Part shown: positions 6,458-54,610 of the stretch, in pieces
Layout of the letters: the number at the start of each line of letters is the position of its first letter
Numbering within the stretch: the stretch's first letter is position 1
Source of the DNA: Cyanidioschyzon merolae
Lineage: Eukaryota
Assembly: GCA_000091205.1 (NCBI GenBank)
Contig: AP006494.2
Strand: one strand, 5' to 3'
DNA length: 64,000 nt
Notes under the pieces: model-generated
What the model was told of the DNA's origin: nothing
Database searches by the model: none
Seen by the model: only the letters and a program-made list of their open reading frames with translations
Made by a program: the position numbers and the translations under genes

Positions 6458-6592
6458 TGGAGTCGTTTGTTTTTTGGCATTACATGTGCAGTTGCACAAG
6501 TGACAACGCACATGTTACACCCGTGGCAGAATAAAGTGGAGCAGGTCGTTTCATCCAACACAAAGGAACAAGCTTGAGTTTGGAATTCCGTC

Positions 6593-7917
6593 CACGATCA
6601 TCAACTCCAGCCTATATGGGGTTTGTTCTGTAATTAGATTCTCCACCGTTCTCTTACGAGCGGATTGCAATACCTTGGACGTCTCTTGTCCTCTAAAATC
6701 GTTTACAGCAGTCAAAGGGTGATGACGGCAGCGCTCAAGTCCAGAGTTCACAGCATCCTGCAGTTTTTCACGTATTGCATGCATAGACGCAAGTCACAGT
6801 TCCCATGTCTTCTTCGTACACATCTGAGTGCGTCCTTCACACCAGTGACACTCGGCTGTGGTCAGCAGGCGATCGAATACGTGCTCGACAACGCCGCCCC
6901 CACGAGCTGTCCTGCAGCGCGTGAACGCTCGGGGCATCACTCGGTGGATGCCCTTGACGCATACTGAAAGCACCCAGCGAGGCGCTCGCTTCCGTTCCCG
7001 AGCCCCGTACCCTACACTGGGATCATCCGCTTCAGCTGAGCGATATCCTCAGCGAGTGTTGTATCGGCTGTGGGCGCAAGCGCACGCTGTTCCATTCGGC
7101 GGAGGAGTTATGGAATGCAATCTAGTCCGCCATGAAACGTGTACAGAAACGTACGTTCAAACCGGAGAACAAGCCGATAGACTCCGATCCGTCGACGCTT
7201 GTCTCGTACGTAGCGGTGGCGCATGCCCTACTGGTACCGAGTGCTGCGATGACCCCAGTCCGCTTCAGTCCACTTTTCCATGCGAGAACAGGAGAGACGA
7301 GCGCTTCTGGCAGCAGCACCAGCAGCACCATAGTGCCCTGAGAAGCATCACGCTGGTACTGAATGTCGATTCTTCACTGGTCATCACGAAAGGAGGATTT
7401 GTTTTCCGAAATGAATCGATCATTTGACGTGACAAGGCCAGTGGACGTTCAGCAAGCGCTCGTGAACAATGCGTCAGAGGACGACACGTCGGGGTTTCTC
7501 GCGTTGCGAGCCCCGCTGAACGACTCGCAGTGCGCACACGAGTTGCCTTGAGCCCCAAAAGATAAGATCGATCATGTAGAGACTTCGTGATTTGAACATA
7601 CTGCATGTCAGAAATGGAGAAGCGTCGAGATACGTGCGAATGAAGTATATCATGGTGTCACTGTATCGGTTGGTTGACGAACGCACGTACGAAAGCGTCG
7701 TGAAGCATCGTGATATCGGTGACGCCAGGAAATCCAGCAGCCGGGCGTCGAAGAGACCCCCGCGACCAGACCACCGATCATCCTAGAAGTACGAATGAAT
7801 CCGTGATCCCCCATTGCTGTACCTGGGCTCTCGATGCTGGGCATCTAGAAACGTTCGGAACTACGTCGCCAGGCATGCATGGAGCGTGCAGCTCAGCACT
7901 CCATTCTATACTGACAC
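6593..7917 (+). repeat. Dispersed repeat, copy A (1325 bp) of a 1.33-kb direct repeat family. Its partner is at 24877..26213.
   Basis: Near-identical sequence from cacgatcatcaactccagcc... to ...ccattctatactgacac. Embedded ORFs differ by about 1-2% at the amino-acid level. The internal CAG/CAC tract varies in length between copies. Confidence 0.85.
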
Positions 7918-9908
7918 ATCTGTAGCAGCGCTGCATGCTGTCCGTTGACGTGTACGTTTGCCCATCGCATGCACCACCACTACGGCTGCTACTTCAGTTA
8001 CCACCACCAACCCCAAAGTCTTGAATCGGAAACGCAGACAGGCGTCTTCACATCGGAGCAGCGCATATTGTAGTGGGACGCCCTCCGAATAGACGTTGTT
8101 TAGAGGCACGACGCCCTGTTCGTAGAAGCAAGGATGTATCCATTTGTCCACTTGTGATTCGTAGACTGGCACGAGTTGCAAGCTGCTGTCCTCCAGATAT
8201 CCGTACTGCCGCCGAGCGGTGTTCATCATTTCTACAAGTAGCCGCGCCTCGGTCTTAGAAGCATTGTCCAGTGGCAAGGTTGACTTTGCCTCGGAAACGA
8301 TGCAGGCTAGCAATCCCGGTTGCGTGCTGTTGTCTAGAGAACGTCACCTGGGTTCCTGGTTCCACCACGAATCTCGTGCTTTGGGACATACTGCTTTGGA
8401 GACCCTGGAACGTTATAGCATCCACGGAAGCACTGCAATCTTTTTCCGAGATATCTGTTTTGATCAGTGCCCTATCAGGGAGATGCTTGCCCGATGCATC
8501 CAACTTCGCTTAGGGACAAGCTGCTCCGAATTCCATGTACTGGAGCCGATCTTCCGAAAGACAGTATCCAGCTCGATGCATTCGTCGTGATCAGAGGAAA
8601 CTACTCCCCGCCGAACTGCAACAAGTGTGTACAAACACCTGCCCAGAGGCACGGTTGTGGAGCGTATCGGACCTCGGCACGAAAGCCGCGGAGAGCTCTA
8701 CAGCCGCACGGTGGTCTCTTGATCCGGCTTCCCACTCGTACAGAAGCACGGGTCTGTCTGAAACTTCTAGAACACAGCAGCACCTGCGGGGGAACTGTGG
8801 TCACGTCTCTGGTTACCGTTCGTATTCGTGGATTGTAGACACCACTGGTTTGACGCAGCGTTCCGTCAACAGGTACAGTAGCGCTAGTGCGGAAGCGTCA
8901 AGCGTACCGGACGTTGGTGCGCGGCACTGGCCTTTCGGGTCTGGACCTCTTTATGGGCAACTGTTTTGGAACAGAGCAGCGGACAAAGCACCGCGTGCAC
9001 CCAGAAAGCAGCTACCGGACGGAGTCCACGTCGTCAACCGTTCGACGAACGCCTCAGTCTGGCCGCGTCCTCGGTAGTGCAGCAGCGGGTGCAGACGCGC
9101 CAGCGCCCACCGAGCGACGAGAGGTGCTCGCGAAAGCCGCCGAATCGCGGACCCAGAAGTATCATAAGACAAGAGACAAGTCTGCGGGAGTTGAGCGGAA
9201 GCAGATGCGCGGACCTCGGGAACCATTGTCACCGGCCGAGCAGCGCCATCAAGAGGAGCTCGTTCGAGGTTGGCAGTCGTGAACGAGCTGGTGCCCCTCC
9301 ATAAGCTTTGCTCGCGCGTCGCCAGGCACCGACTCGACAAAACCAAGCCCCGGAACAAGTAAATGCGATCAAAGTGAGGTCAGGGCTTGTTGTCTCTGGA
9401 AGCAGCTTGCGGCCTTGCGCTAGACTCGACCGACCTGGAGCAGCGGACGTATCGCCCAGCGGGAGGAACCAGTGCACGTACTTCCACAACTTCCAAGGTC
9501 ACCAGCAAGGCATCCAAAGCAACGGACCATGGCATTGGATTGCGTCGCGTAGATGCTCGTACGGGCATCACCAAGCCGCCATTTCGGTGGACGATGTCCA
9601 CGATTCGCACCGCTTTCCGATGTGCATAGGATCTTGCCTCGAAGTCCGATGCGAACGCTGGTATAGCGCTGATGGAACACGAATGCAGCTTTCGAAGACG
9701 CCAGACCCATGCCTTGGTGATGAACGACACCATTCGTGTATCCGGACAAGTCTGGTTCAATCCACGGACGCTTGACCAGGAAACAAACATTGCATGGCGC
9801 TTGCATAGCTCCGACACGGTATGTGCAAACAGGTATGGTTTACGTCATCAGCCCTGGGTCGCATTCGCGGTACGCACACTCCGTTCCATCCACCTTCCAC
9901 GCCTTTTT

Positions 9909-12500
<2,592 letters not shown>

Positions 12501-12925: not shown

Positions 12926-13714
12926 ATGAACAGTGCGACGAGGACAAAATTCATCCTCCCGGTCAGTCGTACCACAGTATTCAAGTGGTTGAGGAACTTT
13001 GAAAGAGCGACGCATATACGGACCGCACCAAAAACCGATAGTTTTAAAGATTGCTTGTGGTCAATGGTGGCGAACCACCCGTTGATCACGTTAAGGAAAG
13101 CAAAAGCGACGATCGTAGCCACCACGCACATCTCTGATCCTAACAGCTTGTTCGTATGGTCCTGAATACAATGGGACGCAGCTGCAAAAAATGTTCTAGT
13201 TCACATACGGCCATCTTCCACCGAAATCGCAACGGCAGCGTTCATGGATCGTCGCGATCAGTATGAAGCACAGTAACGTCGGTTGTTTCTTTCATCCGAT
13301 GAGACTTTCTTCGAACGAAACCGTCGGAGTGTGTATGGGCATTCGCGGAACACGGAGACCGTTGTATGTAGAATCGAACTCGAAAAGCAAGATGACATCA
13401 CCATCTATTCTTGATGTGGTGGATTCATTTGGCGGCCTCAGTTTTGCTCCCAGTGAGGGCTCGTGCAAAGGCACCAACCACTTTGTCGAATCATTGAATA
13501 CTTTTCGCTGAGGTCTGGCGACGACCTTCTATTCGACAACGTGGATTTTCTCCAATTTCCTCGAATTCGATTTTTGCCGATGGTATCGGAGGTAGAACTG
13601 CTTTTGATTCCTCCGTACGCTCCGTGGTTGAACGCCATCGAAGGTGCGTTTTGTATCGTGAAACATTATGATAGCTTCACTAGGCGAATCGCGGAAGCGT
13701 TCAGCGCACGGTGA
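12926..13714 (+). mobile_element. Tc1/mariner-IS630-like (DDE_3-type) transposase pseudogene. It has an HTH region and a degenerate DDE domain and is frameshifted.
   Basis: An HTH-like segment reads ILPVSRTTVFKWLRNFERA. The degenerate first half of DDE_3 reads ...GIRGTRRPLYVES...KMTSPSILDVVDSFGGL...EGSCKGTNHFVESL. The catalytic second half reads LLFDNVDFLQ...LLLIPPYAPWLNAIEGAF, matching the DNAxxH...PPYSPdLNPIE signature. At least two frame changes are present. Confidence 0.5.
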
Positions 13715-13789
13715 CACGGGGGAACGTATCGTCGCTCGTGAGCAAGTGCTTATGCTTGCGGGAGGCTGCTCATCTTAGAGCCTAAGGAA

Positions 13790-14165
13790 AACCCCTCAGA
13801 AATATATTATGGGATGAGCTGGGGTCTACATGTCAGAAGGTTGAAATGGAGAGAAGCCAGCGGGAGCGCTCTAGTGACCGGAAAAGACGTTGAGCTGACA
13901 CAGCACCAAATGGTACTGAGGGCACGAGGCCGCAGCATCCTTGAAATGATTAGTTCAGTCAGAGACAACGCACGCCAGGAGTTCGTGAACCGAGACTTCA
14001 ACGCCGCCATCAATATCAGACGATGTGTGGTGTTGGAGACGGGACTCGAGGAGCTGAGAAGATCCAAATTTGTGGGGCAGCCTCTTAAGTTCGAAATCTA
14101 CAGGGAGAAAATGAACCCGATCGGAGTCGGCCGGTCGAAAACGGCTGGAAGGCGTCTCTGCATCG
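13790..14165 (+). mobile_element. Fanzor/TnpB-like element, copy 2 (3' fragment: RuvC-III region and 3' terminus).
   Basis: The sequence ...RQEFVNRDFNAAINIRRCVVLETG...FVGQPLKFEIYREKMNPIGVGRSKTAGRRL carries the RuvC-III motif. It aligns at nucleotide level to copies 1, 3 and 4 and ends in the shared 3' motif cggccggtcgaaaacggctggaaggcgtct. Confidence 0.55.
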
Positions 14166-20718: not shown

Positions 20719-23700
20719 TCATTCATAACTGGCCTGGAGAAGCGATGTGCGTTCGCCGCCTGCAACTGGTTGCATATCTGGTGCGGTACCCGATTCCGTA
20801 TCCCCGGTAGGTGCGAGTATCGCAACTTGCTCGTTCGTGGCGTCGATGGGCAACGACGCTGGTCCAGTGACGAAAGCTAAAGCCTCCGCCACGGAGACGG
20901 GCTCAACACACGATACACGTCCACGAATCGTAACGCCGTAGCAGCGATCCGCAACACGAACGAGTTCCGGGCGAAATGTGGTGAGAATCAACTGTGGACG
21001 CGAGACGGATGAACGTGCTGCAGACGCTTCGGTTCCATGACCAGCATCAGGGCCTGGTTGTCGTTGCTGCAAAAGCGCTGCGATGCGTTCGCGCGAGGCA
21101 GCGTCGAGACTGGCGTCTATTTCATCGAAGAGATAAAAAGGGGCAGGGTCCAGACGTTGAATGGCCAGGATCAAAGCCAGGGCTACCAGGGTTTTCTGGC
21201 CACCGCTCAGCGCCGCCATCAAGCTGAAGTGATCCTCCGATGGAAAGCGCACACGAATAGCGACCCCGGCAAAGTCCACGTTCGTGTCGGTGGTATCGGA
21301 CGCAGTCGGATGCGGACCTCGTTGCATGACGAGCTGGGCCGTACCACCGGGGACCAGCTCAGCGAATACAGCAGAGAAGAGTCTGGCGATTCCTTTGAAA
21401 GTGCGTTGCAAGTCGTTGGCTCGTCGATGGTCCAGGGTATGGATGAGCGTTCGGATCGAGTCGTCGCCACGATCGAGTTCCTCAAGGCGGGTGCGCAGCT
21501 CCTCGCGTTGGTTCGCAAACACCAGATATTGTTCGAGCGCTTTCTGGTTAACCTGGCCCAACTGGCTGAGGCGGGTATTTGTCGCCTCCAGACGTTGCAT
21601 GAGCGTTGTCAGCGGCACATGGGCGAGCTCGTGATGTTGGGCGGGAGCAGGTCCGAGTTCCCGCAGTTTGCGCTCGGTCTCCGCTTTGCGTTGCTGGAGA
21701 TGCGTATGACGTGCGACGTGGATTTGTAGGCGCTGGCTTTCGGTGGCGAGGGCCTCCTTGGCTACGGGAAGTTGTGCCTCCAGTGAGTCACGCTTTCGAG
21801 CGAGGGCGTCAAGTTCGGTGGCTGTGCGCTGAAGCGCCTCAGCGATGCGATCCTGCGAGACTCGCTGGGCCTGGAGCACGCTGCCAAGCGTCTCGAGCTC
21901 TCTACGCAAGCTCGTCTGACGTGTTTGTAGCTCCGCTATAGACGGAGGCGCTTCATCCGGATCGCTCTGCAACGCGACTGGCACAGAGATGCCGGACGCT
22001 GAATCGAAGAGCTCCGGTGCATCCTCGAAAGTCTCGCGAAGAAAACGTTTCTCCAGCTCCCGCAACTGACGCTCGATGCACGTTTCCAACTCGCTTTCAA
22101 TCTCGACGAGACGCTGCTCGAGGGTAGCACGTGCTGCAGCGACTGATTCTAGCTCTTTTTCGAGTGCAGCAAGCCGGGCAACGAAGGCATCTGCAGAAAT
22201 CGCTGTCTGCGGTGTAGGTGATGACGATGAGGATGAGAGTGCTGCGGTCCGTTCCGAAAACTCATCGCGCAAGCTGCTGAGCACCAGTTCATATTCGTGA
22301 ACATGTCGCTGCAGGGTTTGCATGCGCTGCCGTTCAGTCTCGAGCGCAGCCTCAATGGAGAGCTTCTCACGATCCAGTTGGGTGAGCGCACGTTGATGGT
22401 CGCGCAACTGATTGAATAGGTTGCGCTTTTCAGCTTCGGATTTCTGGAGTTCGTTCATCGTCCGCTGAATCTGCGATTCCAGTGCGGCAAGTTGTGCTCG
22501 GATTTGCTCACGCTCGGACTCAATCTGTTGAATTTGGATGCGGATCTTGTCGTAACGCAGCAGCGAGGCAAGTCGAGACTGGCGCCGATCCGTGTATCCA
22601 CCGTGCATTGCCCCGCGTTTGTTCACAAGGTCGCCCTCTAGGGTCACGCAAGGCACATTGTACCCGCGAGCCAGTTTCGATGCGATTAATATGGAGCGAG
22701 CAATGAGCGTTCCAGCCACCACGCGCTCAAATACAGGGCTGAAGCGCTCATCGCGTAGGCGCAGCCGCGAAACCAACGGAACAGCCTCTTCGGTGGGTGG
22801 CGGGCTCATAGAGTTGCGCTTCGCGGCGTCTGATGCATCGTCTCGTACCCGGTTCAGAGGAATGAAGGTTAACCGGCCTGCATTGGCTTCGCGTAGCCTT
22901 TGAATGAGATATGCCGCGGTTTCATCGGTATCTACAACGATGTAGCAGAGCGCCGACCCCATTGCAGCCTCGACGGCGACGTAAAACTTTTCATCCGTCT
23001 CGAAGAGCGTATAGAGTGGGCCGTAGATCGTACCGCTGTACTGCAGGTTGCAGATATACTGATACGCGTTGAGAAACTTGCTTCCGACCGACATGCGTTT
23101 GCGGCGCTCGCTCTCCGTGAGTTCGGATAGCAACGTAGCACGCGAGCTCTCGAGTTCTGCTTCTCGACGCCATAGTTCCTGACGTGCTCGATGCGCTTCG
23201 TTGCGCTCACGTTTTAACTCGGCTAGACGCGCATTCAACGCGTTCAACTGTTCACGATCCGAGGCAAATTGGGTTTCATTAGTTTTGCGACGCTCGGCTA
23301 TACTCGATAGCTCAAATTCAAGACGATGAATTTCTCGTTCCGTTTCCTGCAACTGGGATCGCGTTTCATGTCGCAGCTCTTCGTTCCGTGCAATCTCGTT
23401 ATGGAACCATGCGTTACATTCATCGACTGTTCTAAATTGGACGTCTCGTGTTTCTCGTGCCTGGAGCTGCACAAGCTCCTGTTGCGTCATAGCCATCGCG
23501 GTCCGCAGATGCTGTTCCTGTTCTCGAAGACGTTCATACTCTGGAAGAATGCGATCACGTTCAGCGCGGCGCTGCTGTGCTGCTTGCCGCAGTGTCTGGA
23601 TTTTTTGCTCCACTCGATCCAGCTCGATCGTCTCATTTTCTAGCTGCTGCGTTACGAGCGCCAATTCAGTTTCCAGCGCACTGCGCTGCTCTGCCGCTTT

Positions 23701-24588
23701 GACTAACTCCAGCTTCACCGAGCTTTGGTCCACCTCGAGACGCGCTCGTTCCCTTTCTATCTCGGCTATACGCTGCTCAATTTCCTCAAGCTCTACCTCA
23801 AGACGCCGGCACTCCTGATGCATCTTACCGAGTTGAACGCCTTCATGCTGTCGCTCATGCTCCAAAGACTCCAGCTGGGTTTTCAGTTCGGTGAGCTCGC
23901 GCTCGTATATAGCTCTCTCCAGCGAGCGCCTTTCGCGGTCAACTTGCTGATAAGCAACCAATTGCTCCTTCTCATTTTCAAGTTCCTGCAGCCGTTTCTC
24001 AATATACTCCAGAATCTCGCGGATCTTTGCTCGCTTTCCGATGCTCTCTTCAAGGATGCGGAGGGATTCGGCACGCTTCTCCTCATAGGTGCGTGTGCCA
24101 GCGATTTCCTTCAGGAGCTCAAGTCGCTGATCGTCCTTCATCGTACAGAGAGCAGCGACCTTTCCCTGTTGCACGATATAGTACGGATTTGAACGAGAGA
24201 ATCCGGCACTCTCAAAGAGAGCCGTAACCTCAGCTCGGGAGACACTCCGACGATCAAGCAGATACTCGTCTTTTTGCAACCCAAACATTCGCCTGAGCAC
24301 AACCCGGGAACGTTCGATTGGCAGACGCCCGTCACTGTTATCGAAAGTGACTTCTATGAACGCAGATAGCACACGCCCAGATGGGCCTTCATGTAGAAGA
24401 GCAGACCGCTGCTCGGCGTTGAGACCGGGTCCCGCGTCCCCAAGTAGCAGACGCACGGCTTCGAGCAGGTTCGATTTTCCTGAACCATTGCGCCCGACAA
24501 CGACGTTTAACCCTTCGTGAAACGGACCGATAAACGTTTCGTCCTTATATGACTTCCATCCACAGATTCGGATCGAGTGGATGTGCAT
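20719..24588 (-). CDS. SMC3: SMC3 (cohesin subunit), single exon.
   Basis: The N-terminal Walker A reads [22 protein letters not shown]. Long coiled coils flank a hinge. The C-terminal signature reads [36 protein letters not shown] (SMC3-type DPAPFY). The likely true start is [11 protein letters not shown] at 24588; the caller's ORF extends 53 codons further upstream. Confidence 0.9.
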   Translation of the reverse strand: [1289 protein letters not shown]

Positions 24589-24876
24589 GAGCCTTGTCCT
24601 CTGCCGGGCAGTTGTGAAAGGGCCCGCGATAGCGCCTCTGGAACTAACGAGGACTCGGTGCAGGGCACACCCGAGTGCTCCGCGCCAATATCGTACCCGC
24701 GCGCGCGAATGGCGCCGCGCATTTCGATTCGCCATGGAGGTCGACATGGACGCCCGTTATCAAGTTGGTACAATTGTATAAAATATGGAATATATGGATT
24801 AGGTACTTTTCAGAATGGAAATGGACGGTGCTCTGACCGTACTAGGTTGCACGCACTCGGGGTTTATGTATCTTGA

Positions 24877-26213
24877 CACGATCATCAACTCCAGCCTATA
24901 TGGGGTTTGTTCTGTAATTAGATTCTCCACCGTTCTCTTACGAGCGGATTGCAATACCTTGGACGTCTCTTGTCCTCTAAAATCGTTTACAGCAGTCAAA
25001 GGGTGATGACGGCAGCGCTCAAGTCCAGAGTTCACAGCATCCTGCAGTTTTTCACGTATTGCATGCATAGACGCAAGTCACAGTTCCCATGTCTTCTTCG
25101 TACACATCTGAGTGCGTCCTTCACACCAGTGACACTCGGCTGTGGTCAGCAGGCGATCGAATACGTCCTCGACAACGCCGCCCCCACGAGCTGTCCTGCA
25201 GCGCGTGAACGCTCGCGGCATCACTCGATGGATGCCCTTGACGCATACTGAAAGCACCCAGCGAGGCGCTCGCTTCCGTTCCCGAGCCCCGTACCCTACA
25301 CTGGGATCATCCGCTTCAGCTGAGCGATATCCTCAGCGAGTGTTGTATCGGCTGTGGGCGCAAGCGCACGCTGTTCGATTCGGCGGAGGAGTTATGGAAT
25401 GCAATCTAGTCCGCCATGAAACGTGTACAGAAACGTACGTTCAAACCGGAGAACAAGCCGATAGACTCCGATCCGTCGACGCTTGTCTCGTACGTAGCGG
25501 TGGCGCATGCCCTACTGGTACCGAGTGCTGCGATGACCCCAGTCCGCTTCAGTCCACTTTTCCATGCGAGAACAGGAGAGACGAGCGCTTCTGGCACCAG
25601 CAGCAGCAGCAGCAGCAGCAGCACCAACGCGCCCTGAGAGGCATCACGCTGGTACTGAATGTCGATTCTTCACTGGTCATCACGAAAGGAGGATTTGTTT
25701 TCCGAAATGAATCGATCATTTGACGTGACAAGGCCAGTGGACGTTCAGCAAGCGCTCGTGAACAATGCGTCAGAGGACGACACGTCGGGGTTTCTCGCGT
25801 TGCGAGCCCCGCTGAACGTCTCGCAGTGCGCACACGAGTTGCCTTGAGCCCCAAAATATAAGATCGATCATGTAGAGACTTCGTGATTTAAACATACTGC
25901 ATGTCAGAAATGGAGAAGAGTCGAGATACGTGCGAATGAAGTGTATCATGGTGTCACTGTATCGGTTGGTTGACGAACGCACGTACGAAAGCGTCGTGAA
26001 GCATCTTGATATCGGTGACGCCAGGAAATCCAGCAGCCGGGCGTCGAAGAGACCCCCGCGACCAGACCAGCGATCATCCTAGAAGTACGAATGAATCCGT
26101 GATCCCCCATTGCTGTACCTGGGCTCTCGATGCTGGGCATCTAGAAACGTTCGGAACTACATCGCCAGGCATGCATGGAGCATGCAGCTCAGCACTCCAT
26201 TCTATACTGACAC
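24877..26213 (+). repeat. Dispersed repeat, copy B (1337 bp) of the 1.33-kb direct repeat family.
   Basis: The same termini and internal sequence as 6593..7917, in the same orientation. It carries a longer (CAG)n tract. Confidence 0.85.
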
Positions 26214-28153
26214 GGGTACAGGAAAGCGCATCAAGACAGCGTTCTCGATTTACATCGGCACTGAGCTTTAGGTGATTGCGAGATTGCAATCGGGGCTCCC
26301 AACGGTGATTAATATGCAAACCGTTAAGCTGATGTCCGCTTCGAATAACTCACCGCCGACAAGACATGGAACCACTCATCGTCCGGGAACCATGTTCGGT
26401 TCGGGACCCGGGAATGAATCCATACTCTTGGATCTGACGGTAACGCAAAGAGTCTCGGTTGCAGGAGTCTCGCCAACAAAGGGCATCTATGATTTTTTGT
26501 CTGAGAAAGACTTTTGTCAGTGCGAGCAATCAGATTCTCCGTATGCTACGGTATGTGCTCTGGTATTTGAAGCGAAAGGATGGGTGTCGGGAACAGAGCA
26601 GATTACCTTGGAGTAGATGCTCCCACATCTTCCGAATATTGCTCCATTGGTTCTCGATTTTCGCCTTTGCAATGCAAGATACCAATGGCGACACACCTAG
26701 TGAAGAGAATCTCGTTGTTCAGTGCACCCATGGGGGGATTGAGCCTTCTATGGAGGGAAACTGGCGCTCGACAACCCTTCTCGACGCTCAGTGGTCGATC
26801 GCTGGTCACGTATTTCCAAGAGCATCCTGAAGCGGACTGTTTCATTTACCAGCTCGTTTTGAGGAGCACCAAAGATACTCCGCCATCTTTATTCATCCTT
26901 ATATATGGACAGCCAGCACATGTAGAATCCGAGCGGAGAATCGTGCTCTGGCACGAACTATTGGGAAAGCGAACGCACCCGGCGGCACCCGGGTCGGAAA
27001 CAGCCTTCAGAAAGTCGACTAGACTGCCACGGTACAATACAACGTCCTATTGATCGATCACCTCATTGGGGTAGGTTTTGCTTCCATTTGTTGCCGTAGT
27101 CGTTCGACGAAGCGATGCTCCGAGAGACGCTTTCCCAAAAGTTCGTGAAAGCATTTCCAGGCAACGGCGCCAAGCAGGCGCGCAAGACTCGCATCTCTCG
27201 CAGCGCTAGCTCGACTTGTGTCGCGCAGCTTGCCTGCCTCGATGAACAACGAATCCTGTTACCAATTTGAGCGATCAGGGTAAATGAGTAGACGCTCAGC
27301 TTGTATCTTTTCCAGAGGAACGAACGGATCCTCGGTTAGCACTTAGTCTCTGGCGCGCACATGTTGCAAGGGTAATGGACACTCGAGAATCCACGAATTC
27401 GGTCTCTGGACAGCTCACAACGATTCAGCGTGACAGGTACTACTTCAACTCTGAAACGTTTCCTTTTGTTGAGTGAGGCGAGCACTCATCGCTCCCGTAA
27501 TAAGCCTCTGCGTTTCGATCCAAAACCAATCATGTACGATGCAATGCATGACGGTCTCGTACAGAATCGCGCTTCTTTCTGCGTCCATCCGTGGCTCTTC
27601 ATCACCGCCCATATCAACACTACGGAAAATTCATACCCAATCGCTTCTTCGGCAGTGTTTCTTAGACAGTCTACAGATTGGAGTGGATTGACAAGGAGAC
27701 AGCCGCGTAAATGGAGTCTGATAATGTCTGATATAGGTGCACATCGTTCAAGACAACGCCTACGCGATGAGTGGTTCATTAAGCTGCTGAGAGCAGAATT
27801 CTTAACTTGTAGAGACAGGTCCATTTTCTCGTAATGTCGGTGACAGCATAAAGTCATTCCGCAACCTTTCGACAACCTGCAGGAAACATTCTTTTTGTTG
27901 AACACCTGCGACAAAAAGAATCAAAAACAAAATATACATGCTGGTATGAATAGTGCAGAACTCAGCATTCCGCGTACAGCGATATCCGGCAGGCAAAACC
28001 TCTTTCGTGATCTTTTCATGCGGTTCAGCCTGCACATATCGGCGCAACGCCCGCCGTCGTGCATGAATTCAAAATACCTGTCGTTGTAGCATACTCTATT
28101 AGCCGCAAATTTGCAGCCAGATTGCATGCCGCAAGCGGTTCACGAGTACAGAC

Positions 28154-28993: not shown

Positions 28994-31900
28994 TCGTGAA
29001 CGCAGTACCTGTGCAAGAACCCAGCGACGACTGCACACCCGTGCGGAGCCACAGCTTTCAGGGAACGTTCCAATGCCTTACAGCTCACTGACGCAGATGC
29101 ACGCCCGGCGACAAGCAAATGACGATTTGATCCATGGAACAGTGCGATGCATGCTACCGGAGAGCACGAGCAACCACGACAGAATCTACCCCGATGCAAC
29201 GCTCTCCAGGAAAAACCTCATGTCACTTTGCATGTCGACTCCCGTGCCAGCGTCGGGTAGAGCGTGATCCCGGGTCGAACGGCACGATACCGGCTGGAGC
29301 ACCTGACAGAAACCCCAGCGCCCCGATCTCAAGGAGCGTGAATCATTATGGATGGGGCTCAGCTGCTGTCGGTAACAGAGAGCGGACTGCAGATGTCATT
29401 CCCCGGATAAGTGTGCATATCTGGGACTGTTCCTGGTTGACACGTGGGAGCCGTGTGCATGCAACCAGGACGCACACCCGATCCACAGGATCGCCAGCTC
29501 GTACGCATGCATAGCCGTCTGGGCCGGTGTTACTCGACGCGGCCTGCAGAGTCGAGGCCTCTGTACTTGCAGGATTCTATATATCGACGTGCATGCATAG
29601 ACAAAGCCAGATTATCTTGTGGTATAAATTCGAACCGGTTGCGTGATGCGCAATCCAATAGAGACTTCAAGGGTGCACGAATCGGTTGGCGCTCTGCAAG
29701 CGATACACACAGCAATTGCACGATCCCATTCAGCTTGTCTTTCTTTGTCTGATCTCTGTGGATGAGAATTTTGCTCGCTTTTTGTCTCTGCGATGACAAC
29801 GCGATCGCAAAGGATCGAAAAAATCTCCAGCTGAACCTGCTTTCCTCGTGCTGTCTTTCGAGTAATGAAGGCGAGCAACCACAAAATTGACGCGTTGTTC
29901 TCCTGTTCAATTCTCTCAGAACGAGGTCCCCTGGTTATTGTTTGAGACAACCTCACGAGGACGGAAACTCTGGCTCTTGTTAAGAGACTTGAACGCCGAC
30001 GCGCGATCCTGGCTAGACGCTCGCGTCACAGTGTTATCTATGTGATCCAACGATTCTCAAAGATCCGCTCCGTCATTGAACCGCGCGAGAACGTTCGCCG
30101 CCCTTTCAAGGAAAAAATCCTTATTCGGTACGCTCGCTTAGCTAGTGACCGTATCGCGATTCTTCATACCATAACATGGGCGTGCCTGCAGCCGCCGATG
30201 CATATCCGGTTTCTACAGATGGACAGCAGTCTATGATTTTTGACCCGTACACGCGGAGTGCGAGTCGCAACAGATGAGACGCATCGTGGGCGCGCATGTG
30301 CACAACGGCCTCGAGCCTCTTCCCACGCACGTGCGTCGTTGCGCAGCCGTACAATTACTGCACCTTGAGAACGATGGCGTACGCAGCGTCAAAACAACTG
30401 GCAGCGCTGGGCACGGCGCCAGCGCGACCCCTGTTGCTGCGTCAATCTTTCCTCCGTACCTCATGGGCACATTCGCATGAGACTTGTCGAGCCTCGTGAC
30501 GTCTGGAGAGGAACACCAATCCCAGCGTCTGGTGCCGGTAGGAATCGCATAGCCGGTGTATTCTGTTTCGAACGACGCATCTGATACGGTAAAAGACAGG
30601 CATCATTTCTGCCTCGGCTGCATGCCGATGGCATGGACCGACCAAGTACGGTAGACGAGGTGCGGAACGACTGCACCCTTCTTGGATTCCAATGGAACAA
30701 TGCATTCCTTACTCTCTCCCTGCGTTGAGATTTCTTGCCCAACTTTTTTTAGATACATAGAATTGCCACTCAGAGTGAAGCAAAAAGGACTTGCGTTTTC
30801 ACAGGTAGCTTGAGCATTCTTAGTCTTTGATTTCTTCGATGCATCTTGTTCAACGCTATATTAAGGGAAATCGTTACGTTACCGAAATCAAGATGTTTCG
30901 AGACAGAATCGTACAAGGATTTATGAAAGAAGCGACCTCATAAACCAATGCAAATGTACAGGTCTAAACTCTTCTCCCTTCCCTTATGTGCACTATGCTC
31001 AAATCACGCATTCTTCAAATTATCGATCTCGCAGTTCCACGGCAGCTCGTGGGCGAAGCGAATCGCGCCCCTGGATTGACGACAAACAAGAATCGACGTC
31101 ACCCTTTGACGACTTGTTCACAAGCTCATGCCGAATGTTCACTAAACTTTTTACGTCAAACAATTCATTCCGTTAGAAAAAAGCCCTCATCTCTTTTTGG
31201 CCATCAACGACCCGATACTCAGTTCCAGCATGATGCCTTTCAGAGTCCACGCTCTCAGCGGATCCTTGCTCTTCTGTTCGCTTGGAAACGGATCTTTGAC
31301 TCGGATTTGAGCCATCGCAGCGACCGCTCCCAGTGGAGCGAGCGTCATCGCTCTGTTCCATGAAAGCGTCGACACAACGGCATGTATCGACTCGTTCTCC
31401 AGCCTGGACCCTGCTTCCGATACCTGTTTCATCATGCACAAGAATGCGTTCCCAAAATCCTCTACCAAACGGGACAGTGTGCGCTTGCGTGCGCAGCGGA
31501 CAGTTTACCCACAGACTGGGCGCCCGGAAACAAGCCCATCATCGTATTGCACGGCACTGCACAGGAATGGAGGTGCGAATCGACTTGAGCCTGCTCTACT
31601 AGTCATGGACATGTAGCGAGCGATGACGGAAGCGTTCAGGCGCCACAGGGCAGCCTGCGAAGGACGCCGTATAATGGACATACGGGAACACCTGACCAAA
31701 GCAGCGCGTCACCGCTGCGAAGCGTCCACTGAAGCTATCGACATAGACGATGAAACTGGCAAGCGAAACGTCGATGCCAAAGTCCACTTGTGCATAAAAT
31801 ACGGCGGGAACGTGCTTCGACTGCTGGAAACGAAGCTGGACGGGAGGACAGACCGGTGGATTCAAAACCGGATACAAAAAAGCGAAAAGAGGAAGCAGTC

Positions 31901-32699
31901 GACCATGAAGCCTGCCAAATCTGAGGTTGAATTTCCTTGTGAGGAGCTTTCCAATCATGAACATATACACCTGCTTTCGGTCAGTGAACCTGTCCCATTC
32001 CAATCTCACATAGGTGCATGCTGTCTGTATCTGTCTTTCATCCTATGTATACATATGATGATGTCCACATGCATGCAGTGCGCCACTGGTACTGCACGGA
32101 TCATGGCCAGATCGACTGCGGCGTGTGCGCTTGCGCGGATGCAGGTATTTTTTAGTGGACAAAACGTTTACATAGGCCAGCGTTCTCCGATTATGTGCTT
32201 TTTCCTCTCTTTTTGTGGGGGTTCAGTGCACGGTGAAGTATCCATCAAACGCCCTACCTCCAAGTTACACTACCCATACTTCTTCTCGGATTTTCAGGTC
32301 GTTTCATACGTTCTGTTTTGTGCCTAGTACCTGCCCTAATCATCCGCCTTTGCGCTTGAACCGCTGGGGCGGATAGTTCATAGAGACAGAACGGCGTTGC
32401 CGTACCACACAGAGGACGTCAGCTCGAGGCGCGCGGATGCAGGTGCCTGCGCGATCGCTCGGCAGCGCGGCGCGAATGCCGTCCGGATTGGCGCATTGCT
32501 CCGTGTGGGCTGCGGCACGCACGCACGCACGCACGCACGCTTGATTCCTGTATATCAGGCACGCATACAGGGCACGTCCTCGGGTGCAGCGTCTCGACTC
32601 GTGTTGATTGTCGAGCAAACGCTGGCTGCAGCTCTTTGGCAGAAACTTCAGTATTTCACTCAGTTCAGAGTGCTTTTGCTTCGCTCTAGACGCTGCAGG

Positions 32700-35338: not shown

Positions 35339-36722
35339 TTTTTAAAGTTTCTTTTCTGTTTCGTTCTTAAGGGCTTGCCACGAAAGTAGCAGCTTTTCTT
35401 CAACGAAACGCACTCGAGGGTGTCCGTACGGTAGAAGCCCACAGAACCCAGCAATGTTCGAGCAACTGCTGCTGCCGCCGCCACGAATATGACCGCCGCC
35501 GCCGCCGCCGCTGCTGGCGCCACTGCCACTGAGCGCCCACCGGCGCATTCTGGAATCGTCGACGTTTGATGCGCGATGCGACGATCGCAAAGCATTTCAG
35601 TGGACTATGGATCATCTTCGAAAGCGGGATACACACTGACTTACGGAAAAGCGTCCATCATGCTGCTGCACCCTATCTCCGATATCCGTTACCTGTTCCC
35701 GGGTGTACTGGTTATTCTCGCAGGTTCCACTGTGCGCCTAAGCTGTCTTGAGCACCCGCAATAGCGCCTGTGCCGTTGAAGCAAATGCATCACGGGGACA
35801 GAACGGCTTTGACCTACAACTGAGGGCGTCGGCTCAAGGCGTGGTTTGCGCGATACGGGTCCGGAGTACATAATCATGCTGGGGGCCAGCAACCTGCGCA
35901 GACTGACCTGCTGCCCGCGGCAGCGCGAAGCGATAGACTAGGAGTCCACTAGAATCAGAGCGACGCTAAGACGCAGCCTAACTGCCCCTAATCCCGGAAT
36001 AAACTGCGTTCCGGACGAGTTGTTCAGATCTCGGCACGGCACCCGCGAATGGGTGGAACATGAAGCAAGCGCCTGGCGGACTCGTCCGGCCCGCGGGACC
36101 TTCCGCCTAGGAGGCAAACTTTCGACAATATGGAAACCTTTTCCCCTGTTTTAAAGTTTACCGTAGAGGGGGAAAGAAATATGTATATACATGCTGGTGC
36201 ATCGAGAGTCTCTGTTCCTTATTCTTAATAGGGCGCTCGATACGCGCACCTGGGAGATCTGGCTGTAACGAGACACGACGCGCATCTCGCCTTTGAAGCG
36301 AAACGCGATGCTCATAGTTAGCGTGCTAGTCTATCGTACAAGATGTATTTGCGTTACAGTCGTAGCCAAGTATAGTGTCTCATCTCAGTTTTGTTTCAGC
36401 CTTCAAGTGGCTATGTTCAAGTGATCATTACGAGTTTATAACATACGCGTTCAAAGTGGGTTCTTCATCAAAACTAAAGATAGAAAGTTCTGGAAAAGGA
36501 AGTAGAGGATCCTGGAGGGTGGCTGTAGCCGGCCGCCGAAAAACAAAACGAAAAACAGTGCCGAGCAAAGAGCAACAGGTGATGACGAAGAAGCAGGAGG
36601 GTGAGCCAGACATCAGAAGCTGCCCGAGAGACGACAGTACGACGAGATGGATATGAAAGCGTTTCCTCTACGCCTAATCAAGGATTCCTACGAGCAAAAG
36701 TAGCAAGAGGCTATCAGAAACC

Positions 36723-38670
36723 GTGCCGAGTCGTACTCCAGCAATGTTTGTAACGCATCTTTTCGGACTAATGCATTTGGTTAATGGGATGGAAGAGGAC
36801 GTGACGGATATCATAGCAGTCGATATTCCGGGTGAAATTTTCAACAAGACCTTTATTCGTCACATGATGCTTGGCACCGGGGAAACGTCGAGGAGAAATG
36901 AACGAGTACACGCCTTACACGAAAATCACGCCGAATACCGCTTCAACGGTACTAGATACAGGGGCGACGCAGATATTTACCGCCACGGGACAATGAAGTA
37001 CCTCACGAATTTGAAGAACCAATTCACCATGAACATGAAAGGCTTCATGATACGCTCCATCTTTGCGCTGTACCCGGGCCTGTCTCGCAGAGGGACACAG
37101 GCCATCATCGACGGCATCGCGAACGATAGTAAGAATGAACAGAAGATCGAATTCGTCGACGATAAGACATCACACAGGAGAAAGAACGAGGCTTCTGTAA
37201 TCCGTGCGGCAATTAAAGAGCACCGTGCAGTCTTGGGCCTTGTCAACCCAGCAGAGAAGCTAAGAAATATGAAAAAAGATGATGAAAGATGTTATCCCCT
37301 AATCCTGCGCTATTTCGTGTTTCTGGAGCGAGAACTCGAACGCATGCTGGAGATGACGCTGAATGAGGAAGAAAATGAAGAGTCGCAGAAATGGAAGGCT
37401 GTCCTAATGGAGAACCGCTTCAATGTCGTTCCGTTATGCAACATCAAGTCACAATTTGTGGCTATAGACTCCAGCGTCCTTCATGGCATGATCAGGGAGA
37501 TCTGTCCGGAGTTCGATGTTAGCAGGAAGGAGAACTCCGGTGAAAACCGGGAGACGTACTGGAAGAATATCCTCGATTTCAAACGTCTCAAAACGAGTAA
37601 GCAAAAGGTATTCACTGGGTTGATCGAAACCGATGGGGTAACCATTTGTGGACACTATCGGATGTTGATGGCAGATCGTCCTGGTCCGTCTTCGATATCG
37701 CCCGTGACGAAGCATGAAATAAAGAAGAAGGTGGATCCTTCGACGCAGCAGATGCAGGAGAACGACTTTCGTTGTCGGCCTTGACCCCGGGAACACGAAT
37801 ATCGTTACAATCGCAGGACCCACGCGAGAGGAAGATGGTATCAAAGGCAAGTTGCGTCAGAAAGACATACGGCTTTGGAAGTTCTCAAGAGCTGGGTACT
37901 GCCGAGAGTTTGGGTTAATGAATCCAAGGATATAGAATGAGAAGCGGAACGCAGGAGTGAAGAAGCACCTAGAAGCGATCGGTAGCATAGCGAGCCGCGA
38001 AGCAAACTGTCAAGCTTTTCGGGATTTGATAGAAACTCAAGCTGCTCATCAGGAGAAGCAGTGGAAAGAGTATACAAAGCCCCGGTGGGTTCGTCAGCGT
38101 ATGAACTTGTACGGAGGGAGACAGCGTACATTCACCAACTCCTTCAATGATTGTACGCCCTCAAGAAGGACACGAGTCAAAGGCTCGTAGTGGCTAGCGG
38201 AGCAGGGCGCTGGGCGTCCAGAAAATGGAAGCATACCGGCTCCATCGACAAGAGCGTACAAGGAGTGCGCAGAGCGTTTTGTCACTGAATTGGTGGATGA
38301 GTTCCGAACGGCCTACGTGCATCATGAACGGGGGTTTACACTCCTGCCAGTCGAGATGGATGGTGCCAACCGAACGCTGAGGATACAGAAAAGTACGGAG
38401 AGCGGACAGAGCACAAAATGACACAGTGAGCGCGAGTTCGAGGACTCCTTGCACTGGTGAGTACAAGCGGTGGCATGGAACGCATGCAGTTTGTGGACCT
38501 GGACTTCAACGCTGGTATTGATATCAGGGGATATGAGGTGCTGGCGCGGAGACCCGAGGAGCTGACACGAGCGAACTTTGTGGGCAGCTTCTCAGGGTCG
38601 AAGCGCACAAGGAGAAACTGAAGCTTACAGCAATCGGCCGGTCGAAAAAGGCTGGGAGGCGTCTGCAGGT
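36723..38670 (+). mobile_element. Fanzor/TnpB-like element, copy 3. It is nearly full length but pseudogenised. Its 5' end may extend to about 36375.
   Basis: A 353-aa N-terminal ORF (36723..37784) is followed, in a shifted frame, by [17 protein letters not shown] (RuvC-I-like) at about 37770-37810. Then comes a stop, then ...MNLYGGRQRTF.../...SQRLVVASGAGRW.../APSTRAYKECAERFVTELVDEFRTAY (pre-zinc-finger motif with the Cys lost). VDLDFNAGIDI (RuvC-III) follows at about 38497-38530. The element ends in cggccggtcgaaaaaggctgggaggcgtct. Confidence 0.6.
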
Positions 38671-45301: not shown

Positions 45302-47101
45302 ACAAGCAGCAAGCGGTGGAAAAGTTTCTCCTAACCTTGAAACGCGAAGGAACTGAAATATTGGCAACGAAGCACAGGCTCACCGTGAAAGAAGCACCGG
45401 GTTTCGCACGAGCGACGTGGTCCTTACTCGCGTCGGATTGAAATGCATCACTAAACTGCTCGTTCCGTTCCAGATTTGCGTTTTTTCTCCGAATTTTTTT
45501 TATAGATCTATAGCATATACACTCGAAGTGCAGCAATTGGGACTTGCGAACTTCCACGTCGATTTAGAATTCGCGGTCGTCTTTGCATGGTGGCAGCTTC
45601 GATTCTTTGCCTTTGGAATTCGGTACGTCCCAGGAATCAAGATGATTTGCGACTCCCTCAAGGAAGGATGCGTGAAATAACCGATATCATCATCAATGCA
45701 TGCGTGAACGTCTCCGCTAATCTCCTTTCTTTACGCGTAGCACGCCCAAATCCTGAATTCTAAAGCTTATGCATTTTTCTGTTTCAGGGCAAATAATGAG
45801 TGCTGCAATTCGTGCCGCTCCATGTGCAAAGAAAAACGCCCAAAGTCCTCACTTGATTACTTGTTCATAATCACATACTAAAAGTTAACTGAGCTTATTA
45901 AGTCAAAGAGTCGATACCATTCAAAAGACAAATCCTCTTCTCTTCGCGCCCATTAAAGAAACGGTATTCGGTATCAGCGTGATATCCCTCATCGGATAGG
46001 CCCCAGAGGATCCCGCCCTGTCTGTTTCCATGGAAAAAAATCATGAACTCGGTCTCCAGTCATCCCAGCGTTCGCCTTCAGTGGCGACCGCGTCACTACT
46101 TCGGAAGACGGGAGCTTAGATGGACCGAAACTTCGCGACATGATCTCCAGCCTGGATTTTCATTCCGGTACATGTTTCAGTATGGACAGCATCGCGCTCC
46201 ATGAATCCTCTGTCGAATGGGGCAGCGTGCGCCTCCACCTGCAGCAGACAAAGCAGCCGCCGGGGCCAACTTCCAGACGATGCCCGTAATCGTAGGGTAC
46301 GGCACTGGGCGCGGAAGCGGAGCAGCATATCCTGGGAAGCCTTCTGTGCCTGTCAGGGGCATGCACCGATCCATGAAGCAGGCGTTCGCATACCACAGGC
46401 CGGAGCCCTGATGAGGAGGTATGGTGGGCGTACGGGCGCACCTGATTACGCTCAAGTGTCATCGCTGCGATGGACGCACCGAGGCTATATGGAAAGAAGA
46501 TGGAAACTTCAAGAGCAGCTTGCATCGCAACTACCGTCTGTGTATGCACCGTTTCGACTCCAGTCTGAAGCGGCAAAATCGGGGCTTAACTTTGCCAAAA
46601 ACATCCTTCCGTTGCTGACAAGAGAGCTGTAGTGAAAGGAGAGATCAGCGTGTTTGAAGCCAAAGATAAAAGGAGCAGGATGCAGTCGCAGAAAAGTCCT
46701 GCAACGGCTGGTGTTGATGACAATTGGACGAGGCCCAAACTCTAACATGTACATCTGAGTTAGAGAACTTCCATTCCATTCTGACACGATTCTATGAACG
46801 GTACGCGCTCTGTGGTATTTCGGTTTGCTCAGCGCTGTGGACCTCCGGAAATACCCACGCATGGGGTCTAAATTGGCAAACATTGTATTTCTAGGATTCA
46901 TGCACCGTCCGGACCCGTGTCCGACGACTGCTGCGGAGGCCGGCAAAATGTCGCTCTCTACTGGAAGCGGTTTCCCCCAGATCGACGGACACACGATGAA
47001 CATGACGATGCCAGGTTACAGTGAATGCGCGTGCGTTTCCGAAGCGGCTAAGAAATGTGCTCGAAAAGCGCGCATTCCGAGATGTTCAGTCATCTATACA
47101 T

Positions 47102-48599: not shown

Positions 48600-48875
48600 G
48601 AGATGATGACGAGATTGTAGTGGCATATATGGCACGAGTATTAGGAATTTTTGCACCTGTGAATTCAGTCAGCGTCAATGCACGCATGGAGTTTGTGACC
48701 CGACACTTCAACGATGCTATTGGTATCAGACGATGTATGGTGCTAAAGACGAGACCCTAGGACCTGCCACGATCCATCTTTGTGGGGCAGCCTCTCAGGC
48801 TCGTAGTGTGTGAGCAGAAACTGAAACGGATTGCAGGCGGTCTGTCATAAAAAGGCTGGGTGGCGTCTGTGAGTG
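48600..48875 (+). mobile_element. Fanzor/TnpB-like element, copy 4. It is a short 3' fragment in which the RuvC-III catalytic Asp is lost.
   Basis: MEFVTRHFNDAIGIRRCMVLKTRP...FVGQPLRLVV... aligns to copies 2 and 3 (EFVNRDFNAAINIRRC / FVGQPLKF). It ends in ggctgggtggcgtctg. The start coordinate is approximate. Confidence 0.4.
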
Positions 48876-52000: not shown

Positions 52001-54610
52001 GCAACGCAACGTACTCGGTCCACAAACAGCCGCAGTCAGCGACGAATGAGCGGCTCGCTCAGTAGCTCGCAACTGCAGCTCCAGCACGAGTACGCAACGG
52101 ATCGCAGACAGCCGCCACGAGGCCGCAGCGCTACGCACAGCGCGCGACGCACCGTCAAGCGCTATCCTGCGCTGGCGGCCGTCGCCGCAGCAACGCAGGC
52201 GGATCGAATGCGCACGGGTATATATATGAATATGGAACCTCAATCATCACTTGCGTTCAAACCATAGCTGGAAACACCGCGTCCCATCTCGAATCGCGAA
52301 GTTAAGCAGCATTGGGCTCTCTGAGTACTGTGATGAGGGATCGCACGGGAAACGGGAGTGACGCTAGTTCGCTTTTGCCACCACGTCGCGCTGACCTGTT
52401 CTAAAGCGCGCAGCAGCAGACGCGAGCCGGGTAGTCTGGCGGGGAAGCACTGTGAGGCCGGCTTGCTCCGGAATACACTTGCAACCGGTGGTCCAGATCG
52501 ACGACGATAACGAGTGGGTAACTGCGGAGGCCTGGTTGCATAGAGCGATCTTGCAGCGCTACGGACCGCAACACCTGCCGATATTCTGGAGGAGGTGCGA
52601 TCGCCCCCGCACGACGAACCCCGTAGCACCCAGAGGGAGTACGCACCCGCGCTACACCATGAATGCTAAAAAGGGCGGCAGGGCAGGGGCTGTCGCCCCG
52701 AACGCGTATTGCAGACAAACTAGCGCGTCACGTTCCGGTGCGTCACATGCACGCAAACTCGGGTGCCGTACGTATTCATGGTGCTCGACACGCATTCTTC
52801 CCTATGGTAGTGTCAGATTGGAATGAAACACTGAATTGGTCGTTCGGTTTCTGCCTTTCCACTTTTGGATTCGATATATAGCTTCGACATTCCAAGCGCA
52901 GGAATGCTTGCGTACTGATTTACACGGCTTTCCTGGAGTCTGGGTCGTCTTTTCAAAACGACTTGTTCGATCCCTCTCTCTATTGTTCGTTACGGAAGCT
53001 ATATCAAGATGCTTCGCCACGCTACGGACAAAGGGCTCCTAAAATAATCGTTTTCATTATCCATTCCGTGCGTCCATGGCTCCGCTGCTCTCCATGCTTT
53101 ACTTGTAGCAAGCCCAAATCCCGAACTCTTTTACGTTGCGATCTTTCCGTATCTCGTCAACTTGTGCGCGTAGCAATTCTTACCGTTGGATCGATGAGAA
53201 AGGGCCATAAAAGTAATACCCCGACACATTGTTCACGAAATCATGTCGAAACCTCACGGAACCTCACACGTCAATAGTTGATTTCGTTCGGGCGAGGAAT
53301 CGTCCTTTCTTTCCGGTCATCGATGAAATTGTATACAACAACCGTGTGATACCTCTCAAGGGATACGCTTCCGGTGACTTCTGTTTCTTATTTTTGCATG
53401 GAAATGGGTATTGGCCTCGGGCTCTTGTCCTTGCAACGATCGCTTCCAACGGCGAGACGTCTCTGCTTTGCGCGGAAGGAGTGTCGACGAATCGAAATTT
53501 CCCGGTCTCCTATCCGGCCTAGATCCTCCATCTGGTACTTGTTTCATCATGAACAGAATCGAGTTCCACAAACCCTCTGTAGAATCGAATAGCGTGCGTT
53601 TGGTCGTACAGCGAATATAACAATCGTCTTGGAGGATCGCTCAGAAGAAGCCGATGATCTTCGGGTACGAGACCTGGCCTGGAAACAGAGAATCGCATGG
53701 TGCAGAGCCTCTGGTGCCCGTCGAAGGCATCTACCGAGCGGTAAAGCAAGCGTTCACCCGCCACAGGGCAGCGTCCTGAGGCGAAGGATCGGTAGACAGA
53801 TGGGAACACTCGACAACAGCCACGAATCACTCTTCCACAGGACACATCGAGTCTGGATTAAAAGAGCGTGTAAACGCCAAGTGATCCGTAGATCGCACCT
53901 TTTGCGTGCACATGAAATGCCTTGACAAAGACCTTAAACAGCGAAAACGGGACCCCAAAGCTGCCATCAACAACCCTCGGCCGCTGACAACAGAGCTGGC
54001 GGAAGAGGAGAGACCAGCGTATTAAAAGCCGAGGCCAAGAGGGAGGAAAAGGAAGCAGCTGCATGAAAAGCTCGCAATGGCTGGCATTGATGAAAGCGGG
54101 AAAGGACCCAAACCTGCCAGTGTACACCCGAGTTAGGTTTTTGAACCCGTTCTATTGTGGTCTGAGATGGGTGTATAAACGGACCCAGAGAGTGCGAAAC
54201 CTCCACTTTAAGATTTCATACAATTCATTAACATGTCCCTGGGGAATTAGGGCTTTTACAAAAAATGACTCGGCCTGTGCAGCGCAGTCTGCAGAGTATA
54301 AAGTAACATCCTCCGCTCTTTCAGAATCGTAGTTGACCAGGCTAGCTCGCAATGAGCAACGTTTTTGCTACAACCTACTCCATAACGTGAGCAAGAACGC
54401 GCACTTCCTGGTTGGCTCCATCAATTCCCGGGAAACATCGCTATAAGGTGCGGGTACCTGTTGGCGAAAGCAAAATCTCTTGCCCTTGCACCCCAAGCAG
54501 CTCTGAAGCTTCAGGATCGCACTAGAGTTGGCGGATCTCGTCTGCGCGCAAGCCGCGGCCGAAAAGATTTGCCCAACACCGTAACACAGAGCTAAACTAT
54601 CCAGCAAACA

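Follow-up and report, generated by a model that had tools for sequence, protein, structure and literature searches.

Near-identical direct repeats on Cyanidioschyzon merolae chromosome 12 are probably relics of a compact Fanzor1-like transposon homogenised by gene conversion

Two near-identical direct repeats, A and B, in a 64-kb stretch of Cyanidioschyzon merolae 10D chromosome 12 (the window; 64,000 nt) are probably ancient transposon insertions whose interiors were homogenised by ectopic gene conversion. In the scenario that we favor, A and B would go back to two ancient insertions of a ~1.4-kb cut-and-paste-type DNA transposon, which would have carried ~25-nt terminal inverted repeats (TIRs) flanked by TA and one compact Fanzor1/TnpB-like gene of ~380-420 aa, on the minus strand in A and B. 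Independent copies would have drifted to about 56-65% identity, and the interior 1,325 bp of A and B would have been overwritten by non-allelic gene conversion via homologous recombination, each locus keeping its own old 75-nt left terminus and the last ~5 nt on the right.

Read this way, the pair would be gene-converted relic Fanzor-type transposons and not a mysterious unclassified mobile unit. It would add a second compact TIR/TA-bounded Fanzor1-like family beside CMe-1A for C. merolae and offer a specific example of ectopic gene conversion from a haploid alga in which homologous recombination is known to be efficient. No general principle is changed; the value lies in annotation, in repeat libraries for the Cyanidiophyceae, and in a lead to small Fanzor nucleases.

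The near-identical repeat pair

Repeat search and local alignment confirmed a 1.33-kb repeat pair in the same orientation (Table 1), as described in a first-pass annotation of this DNA, and a check of the sequence found the end sequences quoted there to be correct. The two copies are 98.64% identical, with 18 mismatches over 1325 aligned positions plus one 12-nt indel (local alignment); with the gap counted, identity is 97.8% over 1337 columns (blastn). The mismatches are unevenly distributed, with 4 in the first 717 nt vs 14 in the last 608 nt (Fisher p=0.008), which corresponds to divergences of 0.56% and 2.3%, and with none in the first 290 nt of the tract. At 6592/6593, identity falls sharply from 100% to ~50%. 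The ends had been called precise, which holds for their sequences and for the sharpness of the boundaries; however, they appear to be the ends of a conversion tract rather than of an element, with 75-nt old termini lying outside. As annotated, the tract lacks TG..CA ends, reading CACGA.../...GACAC. An LTR pair or two solo LTRs were considered and rejected on account of these ends and of the genes in between, which are CDC48, a kinase, and SMC3.

The reported length difference in the internal CAG/CAC microsatellite was borne out by the alignment: the 12-nt A/B indel sits within it (after 7309 in A; 25594-25605 in B). The length of this microsatellite also differs among strains.

Table 1. Coordinates of the repeat pair, the family members, and associated features. 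Positions are those of the window unless a contig is named.
Feature	Position	Strand	Remarks
Copy A, high-identity tract	6593..7917	+	positions 76-1400 of the 1405-bp element A
Copy B, high-identity tract	24877..26213	+	98.6% identical to A
Whole element A	6518..7922	- (decayed Fanzor-like gene strand)	TA at 6516-6517 and 7923-7924
Whole element B	24802..26216	- (decayed Fanzor-like gene strand)	TA at 24800-24801 and 26217-26218
Old left terminus of A	6518..6592	+	75 nt incl. left inverted repeat; outside identical tract
Old left terminus of B	24802..24876	+	75 nt incl. left inverted repeat; outside identical tract
Element C	30674..32016	+	old copy, inverted vs A/B, ~58% identical to A
Element D	45427..46792	+	old copy, inverted vs A/B; Fanzor C-terminal remnant 46214-46600, best preserved
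Element E	52805..54173	+	old copy, inverted vs A/B; Fanzor remnant 53636-54067
Element F	L021 5880-7268		sixth copy, on another Cyanidioschyzon contig, outside the window
CAG/CAC microsatellite	A 7310-7330; B 25594-25629	+	B longer by 12 nt
CDC48 (BAM80658)	9909-12488	minus	between A and B
Protein kinase, 1732 aa	15298-20496	plus	between A and B
SMC3	20719-24747	minus	between A and B
CMe-1A, full-length copy	35582-38674		79.6% identity to published consensus
CMe-1A, fragments	9-689, 13814-14157, 32253-32429, 48358-48512, 48643-48869		match to published consensus
Intact compact Fanzor1-like ORF P0060 (376 aa)	L019 (1408 nt)		unrelated metagenomes
Intact compact Fanzor1-like ORF P0059 (418 aa)	L020 (1816 nt)		unrelated metagenomes
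Intact compact Fanzor1-like ORF P0061 (387 aa)			unrelated metagenomes

A dispersed family of ~1.4-kb elements

Sensitive self-blastn and MAFFT alignment revealed three further family copies (C, D, and E) within the window, all inverted relative to A and B. The independent lineages share 56-61% identity in global alignments and 63-65% locally (blastn). The CAG/CAC microsatellite is common to A, B, and a third direct copy, Z (described below), only; in the MAFFT alignment, it is missing from C, D, and E and thus serves as a derived marker of the A/B/Z lineage.

An nhmmer profile built only from C, D, and E matches A at 6515-7943 and B at 24806-26227, extending past the identical tract by 71-78 nt leftward and 14-26 nt rightward. 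For the isolated flanks, nhmmer is too insensitive, so we used pairwise alignment against shuffles. By this measure, the left 75 nt of A resemble the left end of D (z=7.0, p<0.0005), and the left 75 nt of B resemble C (z=4.5, p=0.0005) and D (z=4.4, p=0.0025). The left 75 nt of A and of B are barely alike (z about 3; 2.7 for A against the left flank of B), and their alignment is not colinear. The register of the termini shows both left segments to be exactly 75 nt long and colinear with the tract. The identical tract is nested in older homology, and the earlier statement that the flanks are unrelated is correct only in part: self-blastn finds no homology beyond the elements, but the immediate flanks are old family sequence.

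The copies bracket the CDC48-kinase-SMC3 block, as the first-pass annotation had it, and A occupies a 3'-3' intergenic region. Copy B had been placed about 290 bp from the SMC3 ATG; this fits an internal ATG at 24588, whereas 130 nt separate 24877 from the ORF's first ATG (24747). Measured from whole elements, the left end of B (24802) is 54 nt upstream of this first ATG, A begins 60 nt past the stop codon of CML020C (BAM80657; 6457/6518), and D lies 59 nt upstream of the COG3 ORF start (45367/45427); these relics adjoin genes at nearly equal distance (60, 54, and 59 nt for A, B, and D). The promoters of SMC3 and COG3 may sit inside relic elements B and D. Within this 64-kb part of a "minimal" genome, such relics take up five to six of the intergenic regions.

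Terminal inverted repeats and TA flanks

Aligned in register, the 12 ends of the six copies read TA followed by an inverted repeat of ~25 nt (CACCCGTGTCAGATTGGAATGGAAC). The dinucleotide is TA at 8 of the 12 ends (shifted in two cases by a 2-nt deletion), TG at three, and TT at one; in this comparison of occupied sites, the TA may be either a target-site duplication or the terminal bases of the element. In the consensus, the inverted repeats match at 19 of 30 positions; the maximum among 2548 internal 30-mers is 16, and none of 20,000 shuffles reached 19/30 (p<5e-5). Within single copies, 12-17 of 25 positions match. The repeats had been reported to lack both terminal inverted repeats and target-site duplications; at the level of the family, the first statement does not hold, given the ~25-nt TIRs, and the TA flanks may be target-site duplications.

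The contigs of the intact relatives described below end in or hold the same 3' terminus as the family (...TGACA..GGTG, then TA). Contig L019 stops exactly at the shared 3'-terminal TA.

A decayed Fanzor1/TnpB-like gene

Rfam and tRNA scans of the A/B unit gave zero matches, in agreement with the claim that it contains no recognizable RNA gene. The accompanying claim that there is no protein gene does not extend to the family consensus, which holds a decayed one. On the strand opposite to A/B, the 1384-nt majority consensus of independent copies reads IVVYGTG...VPVKG...TTATCHRCEG...CMQC...NRDFNAAINILRL. This minus-strand consensus fits the Fanzor1 C-terminal signature of a zinc ribbon plus RDxNAAxNI (here TTATCHRC...CMQC...NRDFNAAINI); the Fanzor1 C-terminal motif has been given as [TS][TS]-x-x-C4 zinc finger-x(5,50)-RD (Bao & Jurka 2013, PMC3627910). 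The consensus also matches Pfam PF07282 (Cas12f1-like_TNB, TnpB zinc ribbon) with E=2.7e-6 and 27.9 bits vs a 26.3-bit cut-off. In A and B, the zinc-ribbon/RD motif itself is decayed.

For the homologue search, we used a profile of frame-corrected copy translations; the bare consensus retrieved nothing. The profile retrieves the intact 376-418-aa metagenome proteins P0059, P0060, and P0061 (Table 1) at E=4e-31 to 3e-25. P0060 carries PF07282 and matches the family consensus with 46% identity (tblastn, E=1.4e-43). Among single copies, tblastn with the intact relatives gives E=2.7e-19 for D, E=3e-16 for E, and 1e-5 to 7e-11 for C, and weak matches to A (7015-6827) and B (25299-25111) at E about 0.005. 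The N-terminal ~200 aa of the intact relatives have no significant tblastn match to the consensus; in this region, the strings IIDLSVSRQLV vs GIDPGRVNLY are suggestive only, with IIDLSV guessed as RuvC-I. P0059, P0060, and P0061 are possible small RNA-guided nucleases and would form a Fanzor1-like clade of unusual compactness, with a conserved 3' terminus flanked by TA. One of their source metagenomes is a brine sample.

All six copies (A-F) bear multiple stops and frameshifts, and the longest ORF of A on the gene strand is 113 aa. The C. merolae copies are relics or pseudogenes, not active members. The five-copy alignment has no codon periodicity, as neutral decay after insertion predicts; a "non-coding" reading of this was dropped once the consensus showed the Fanzor motif. 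Other searches added little: tblastx among the copies gave like scores in all frames and was uninformative, single ORFs of A and C had zero Pfam matches, and a PDB sequence search returned nothing relevant. A DDE_3 (Tc1/IS630 transposase) reading of the consensus was rejected, as it scored 23 bits vs the curated cut-off of 28.6 and as the intact relatives show its frame to be wrong near the C-terminal end. Compared with Tc1/mariner-type (TA-target, TIR) DNA transposons, the family has the TIRs but, this sub-threshold match aside, no encoded DDE/D transposase.

Judged from sequence, the A/B family is a decayed TA-flanked, TIR-bounded, single-ORF element of Fanzor1 type, and the label "unclassified" does not fit at the family level. 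A TIR/TA single-ORF architecture has been described for SPu-1 and mariner-associated Fanzor1 elements (PMC3627910).

Relation to known Fanzor1 elements

From C. merolae, 253 copies of an interspersed element of 3.2 kb, whose truncated ORF is WSV486-like, have been reported (Nozaki et al. 2007, PMC1955436). The same element was named CMe-1A and placed in the Fanzor1 family, with a 3169-bp consensus, ~150 copies, some of which retain intact ORFs, and no TIRs (Bao & Jurka 2013, PMC3627910); that study also lists Fanzor1 in white spot syndrome virus. We compared the CMe-1A consensus from its supplement (Mob DNA 4:12) with the window and found a full-length copy as well as fragments (Table 1). A 353-aa ORF at 36723-37784 falls inside the full-length copy, and JGI labels its counterpart DUF8286.

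Between the CMe-1A consensus and the A/B family consensus, blastn gave chance-level matches only, and tblastx found only the 12-aa RD/NAAINI motif. By BLASTP, the C-terminal half of the family protein is colinear with the CMe-1 Fanzor1 C-terminus (E=6e-6, 23% identity). The two families share a genome, a TnpB-like Fanzor1 with the NRDFNAAINI RuvC-III motif, and an old age, with CMe-1A copies ~80% identical to their consensus. They differ in length (1.4 kb for the A/B family vs 3.2 kb), in protein size (~380-420 aa vs 734 aa), and in their ends, as the A/B family has TIRs and TA flanks, whereas CMe-1A is reported without TIRs. Given these differences in size, protein, and TIRs and the lack of nucleotide similarity, the A/B family is distinct from CMe-1A. 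By sequence comparison, it is a second, distinct Fanzor1-like family in C. merolae, where Bao & Jurka 2013 lists one.

SPu-1 (Spizellomyces punctatus) and PUl-type Fanzor1 elements have 24-33-bp TIRs and TA target-site duplications (Bao & Jurka 2013, PMC3627910). Like the A/B family, SPu-1 is TIR-bounded, associated with TA, and has Fanzor1 as its sole protein. SPu-1 is ~2.1 kb long, with copies ~92% identical to the consensus and some intact ORFs, whereas the elements of the C. merolae family are shorter and, in all copies seen, pseudogenes, with ~60% pairwise identity.

A third direct copy and strain variation

A third direct copy, Z, is 94.5% identical to A/B and was found at 76-1371 of L008, a 114.6-kb metagenome contig from a related strain, in which it lies about 8.3-9.6 kb left of window position 1. 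Compared with A and B, Z lacks sequence at either end, and its identity endpoints (~6615 and ~7905) differ from those of the A/B pair. At 7 of the 18 sites that distinguish A from B in 10D, the variant is confined to one 10D copy; the other 11 segregate across loci in other strains, as at 7309-7344, where A of L004 has the alleles of B in 10D. These comparisons come from metagenome contigs, in which the interior of a repeat may be a chimera of different loci or strains.

Three contigs (L002 4600-6011, L003 4575-5984, and L006 4590-5998) join the left flank of Z, on the aconitase side, to the right flank of A, on the CDC48 side, and all three switch at 7892-7906. Either unequal recombination between direct repeats has deleted 16 kb here, or the junction is a chimera of the assembly. 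The earlier suggestion that the pair is a substrate for ectopic recombination is reasonable, and the junction contigs may illustrate it, although they could be chimeric assemblies. Recombination among the three direct repeats Z, A, and B could cause deletions of 16-18 kb that take in CDC48, the kinase, and SMC3.

Gene conversion and alternative explanations

Mutually diverged left termini around an identical interior point to gene conversion and not to transposition or duplication, since a transposed or duplicated copy would carry identical termini. Because the left segments are both exactly 75 nt, the replacement would have been colinear. The nesting argument rests chiefly on these left 75 nt, the old sequence beyond the tract on the right being only about 5-10 nt. 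We infer both the nature of the homogenising event, gene conversion, and its direction. The tract endpoints would fall in blocks conserved across the family, and Z, ~16 kb upstream, would have been overwritten likewise, less recently. The uneven A/B divergence and the different endpoints of Z are as expected for separate conversion tracts, and conversion was probably repeated, amounting to concerted evolution among Z, A, and B. Conversion between ~60%-identical partners is unlikely, which favors continuous concerted evolution or, failing that, rare gap repair. By the preferred route, the neighboring direct copies Z, A, and B would have evolved in concert continuously since they were young, with unconverted edges left to drift; by the alternative route, short conserved blocks would have served as anchors for rare gap repair. 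Homologous recombination is an efficient route of DNA integration in C. merolae (PMC3764038, PMC8504449). Ongoing gene conversion was one of the options raised in the first-pass annotation, and it is the one that the evidence supports, given a tract nested colinearly in two older diverged copies.

Non-allelic gene conversion and concerted evolution are known from dispersed repeats such as yeast Ty/delta elements and from paralogous gene copies. A and B resemble such cases in having a near-identical tract within older, diverged paralogous sequence, varying endpoints, and mosaic divergence, and in the arrangement of the partners, which are neighbors on one chromosome and point the same way. Unlike the usual cases, A and B are defunct Fanzor-type transposons of an alga whose genome is very compact and almost devoid of introns, and the starting divergence of ~40%, taken from the other family members, would be unusually high for conversion unless homogenisation was continuous.

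Of the other options raised initially, recent transposition of an unclassified non-autonomous element, i.e., copy-and-paste of a 1.33-kb unit with true ends at 6593/7917, is unlikely. Its boundaries would be the sharp limits of identity, the right one only 5 nt from the right terminus, and Z would be a third, nearby copy at ~95% identity. However, both A and B have their left inverted repeat and TA 75 nt beyond the tract, colinear with it and mutually diverged instead of identical, and the endpoints of Z differ from those of the pair. In addition, all copies are pseudogenes, the window contains no transposase except for sub-threshold DDE_3 signals, and a single scan of the metagenome collection found an exact 21-mer of the unit at only two loci. 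A very recent, simple segmental duplication is contradicted by flanks without further homology (self-blastn). Its older form, a larger ~17-18-kb segmental or tandem duplication of which only 1.33 kb is still recognizable, would accommodate the direct orientation and ~16-18-kb spacing of Z, A, and B; it is highly improbable, as sensitive self-blastn detected nothing else in common between the Z-A interval and the A-B interval, nor any homology past the units, the genes in the two intervals are unrelated, and identity drops abruptly from 100% to ~50% at 6592/6593.

We also consider it very unlikely that the identity reflects purifying selection on a functional non-coding unit, such as a promoter, a non-coding RNA, or a chromatin element upstream of SMC3. 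Such a role would suit the 54 nt between the left end of B and the SMC3 ORF start and the reports that C. merolae repeats are transcribed and H3K27me3-marked (PMC1955436; bioRxiv 10.1101/2022.10.24.513474), but A, in its 3'-3' intergenic region, has no promoter context in common with B, the unit has no Rfam match, and the other gene-adjacent copies are only ~60% identical pairwise, with uniform non-periodic decay. Moreover, selection cannot give 98.6% identity between loci with ~50%-identical termini. An assembly artefact, namely a duplicated or collapsed contig end, had been named as a possible refutation of the pair and has next to no chance of being the explanation. The source is chromosome 12 of the 10D genome, which is finished (PMC1955436), A and B differ at 18 sites plus one indel, and independent metagenome assemblies of close, 99%-identical strains contain both loci: L004, L005, and L007 carry A with both flanks, and L009-L018 carry B with its right flank, covering the right junction of B.

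Within the gene conversion reading, there is a slim chance that homogenisation was driven by a still-functional Fanzor nuclease cutting at or near the relics, with the breaks repaired from ectopic copies. An omega RNA guide that matches sequence at the relic ends could have kept the dead copies Z, A, and B alike. A homing-like repair mechanism has been shown for bacterial TnpB.

Other features of the window

At 27471-27930 and 56184-55722, intergenic DNA holds a diverged (~60%) inverted repeat pair that probably represents a third family of old repeats. Rfam and tRNA scans of the window found a single match, a dispersed 5S rRNA gene at 52249-52369 (+, Rfam 91 bits), which lies 435 nt from the right end of relic E. 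The 6-phosphogluconate dehydrogenase gene (49691-51671, -) is split into overlapping ORFs (49691-50878 and 50571-51671) and lies within a 63-67% GC island vs ~54% elsewhere in the window; the split could reflect a frameshift, an intron, or foreign origin. Just upstream of a CMe-1A fragment, an 83-aa ORF at ~13466-13717 (L001 8747-8998) has a weak DDE_3 (IS630/Tc1-type) match (JGI) and may be a relic of one of the "bacterial-like transposase" elements reported for the C. merolae genome.
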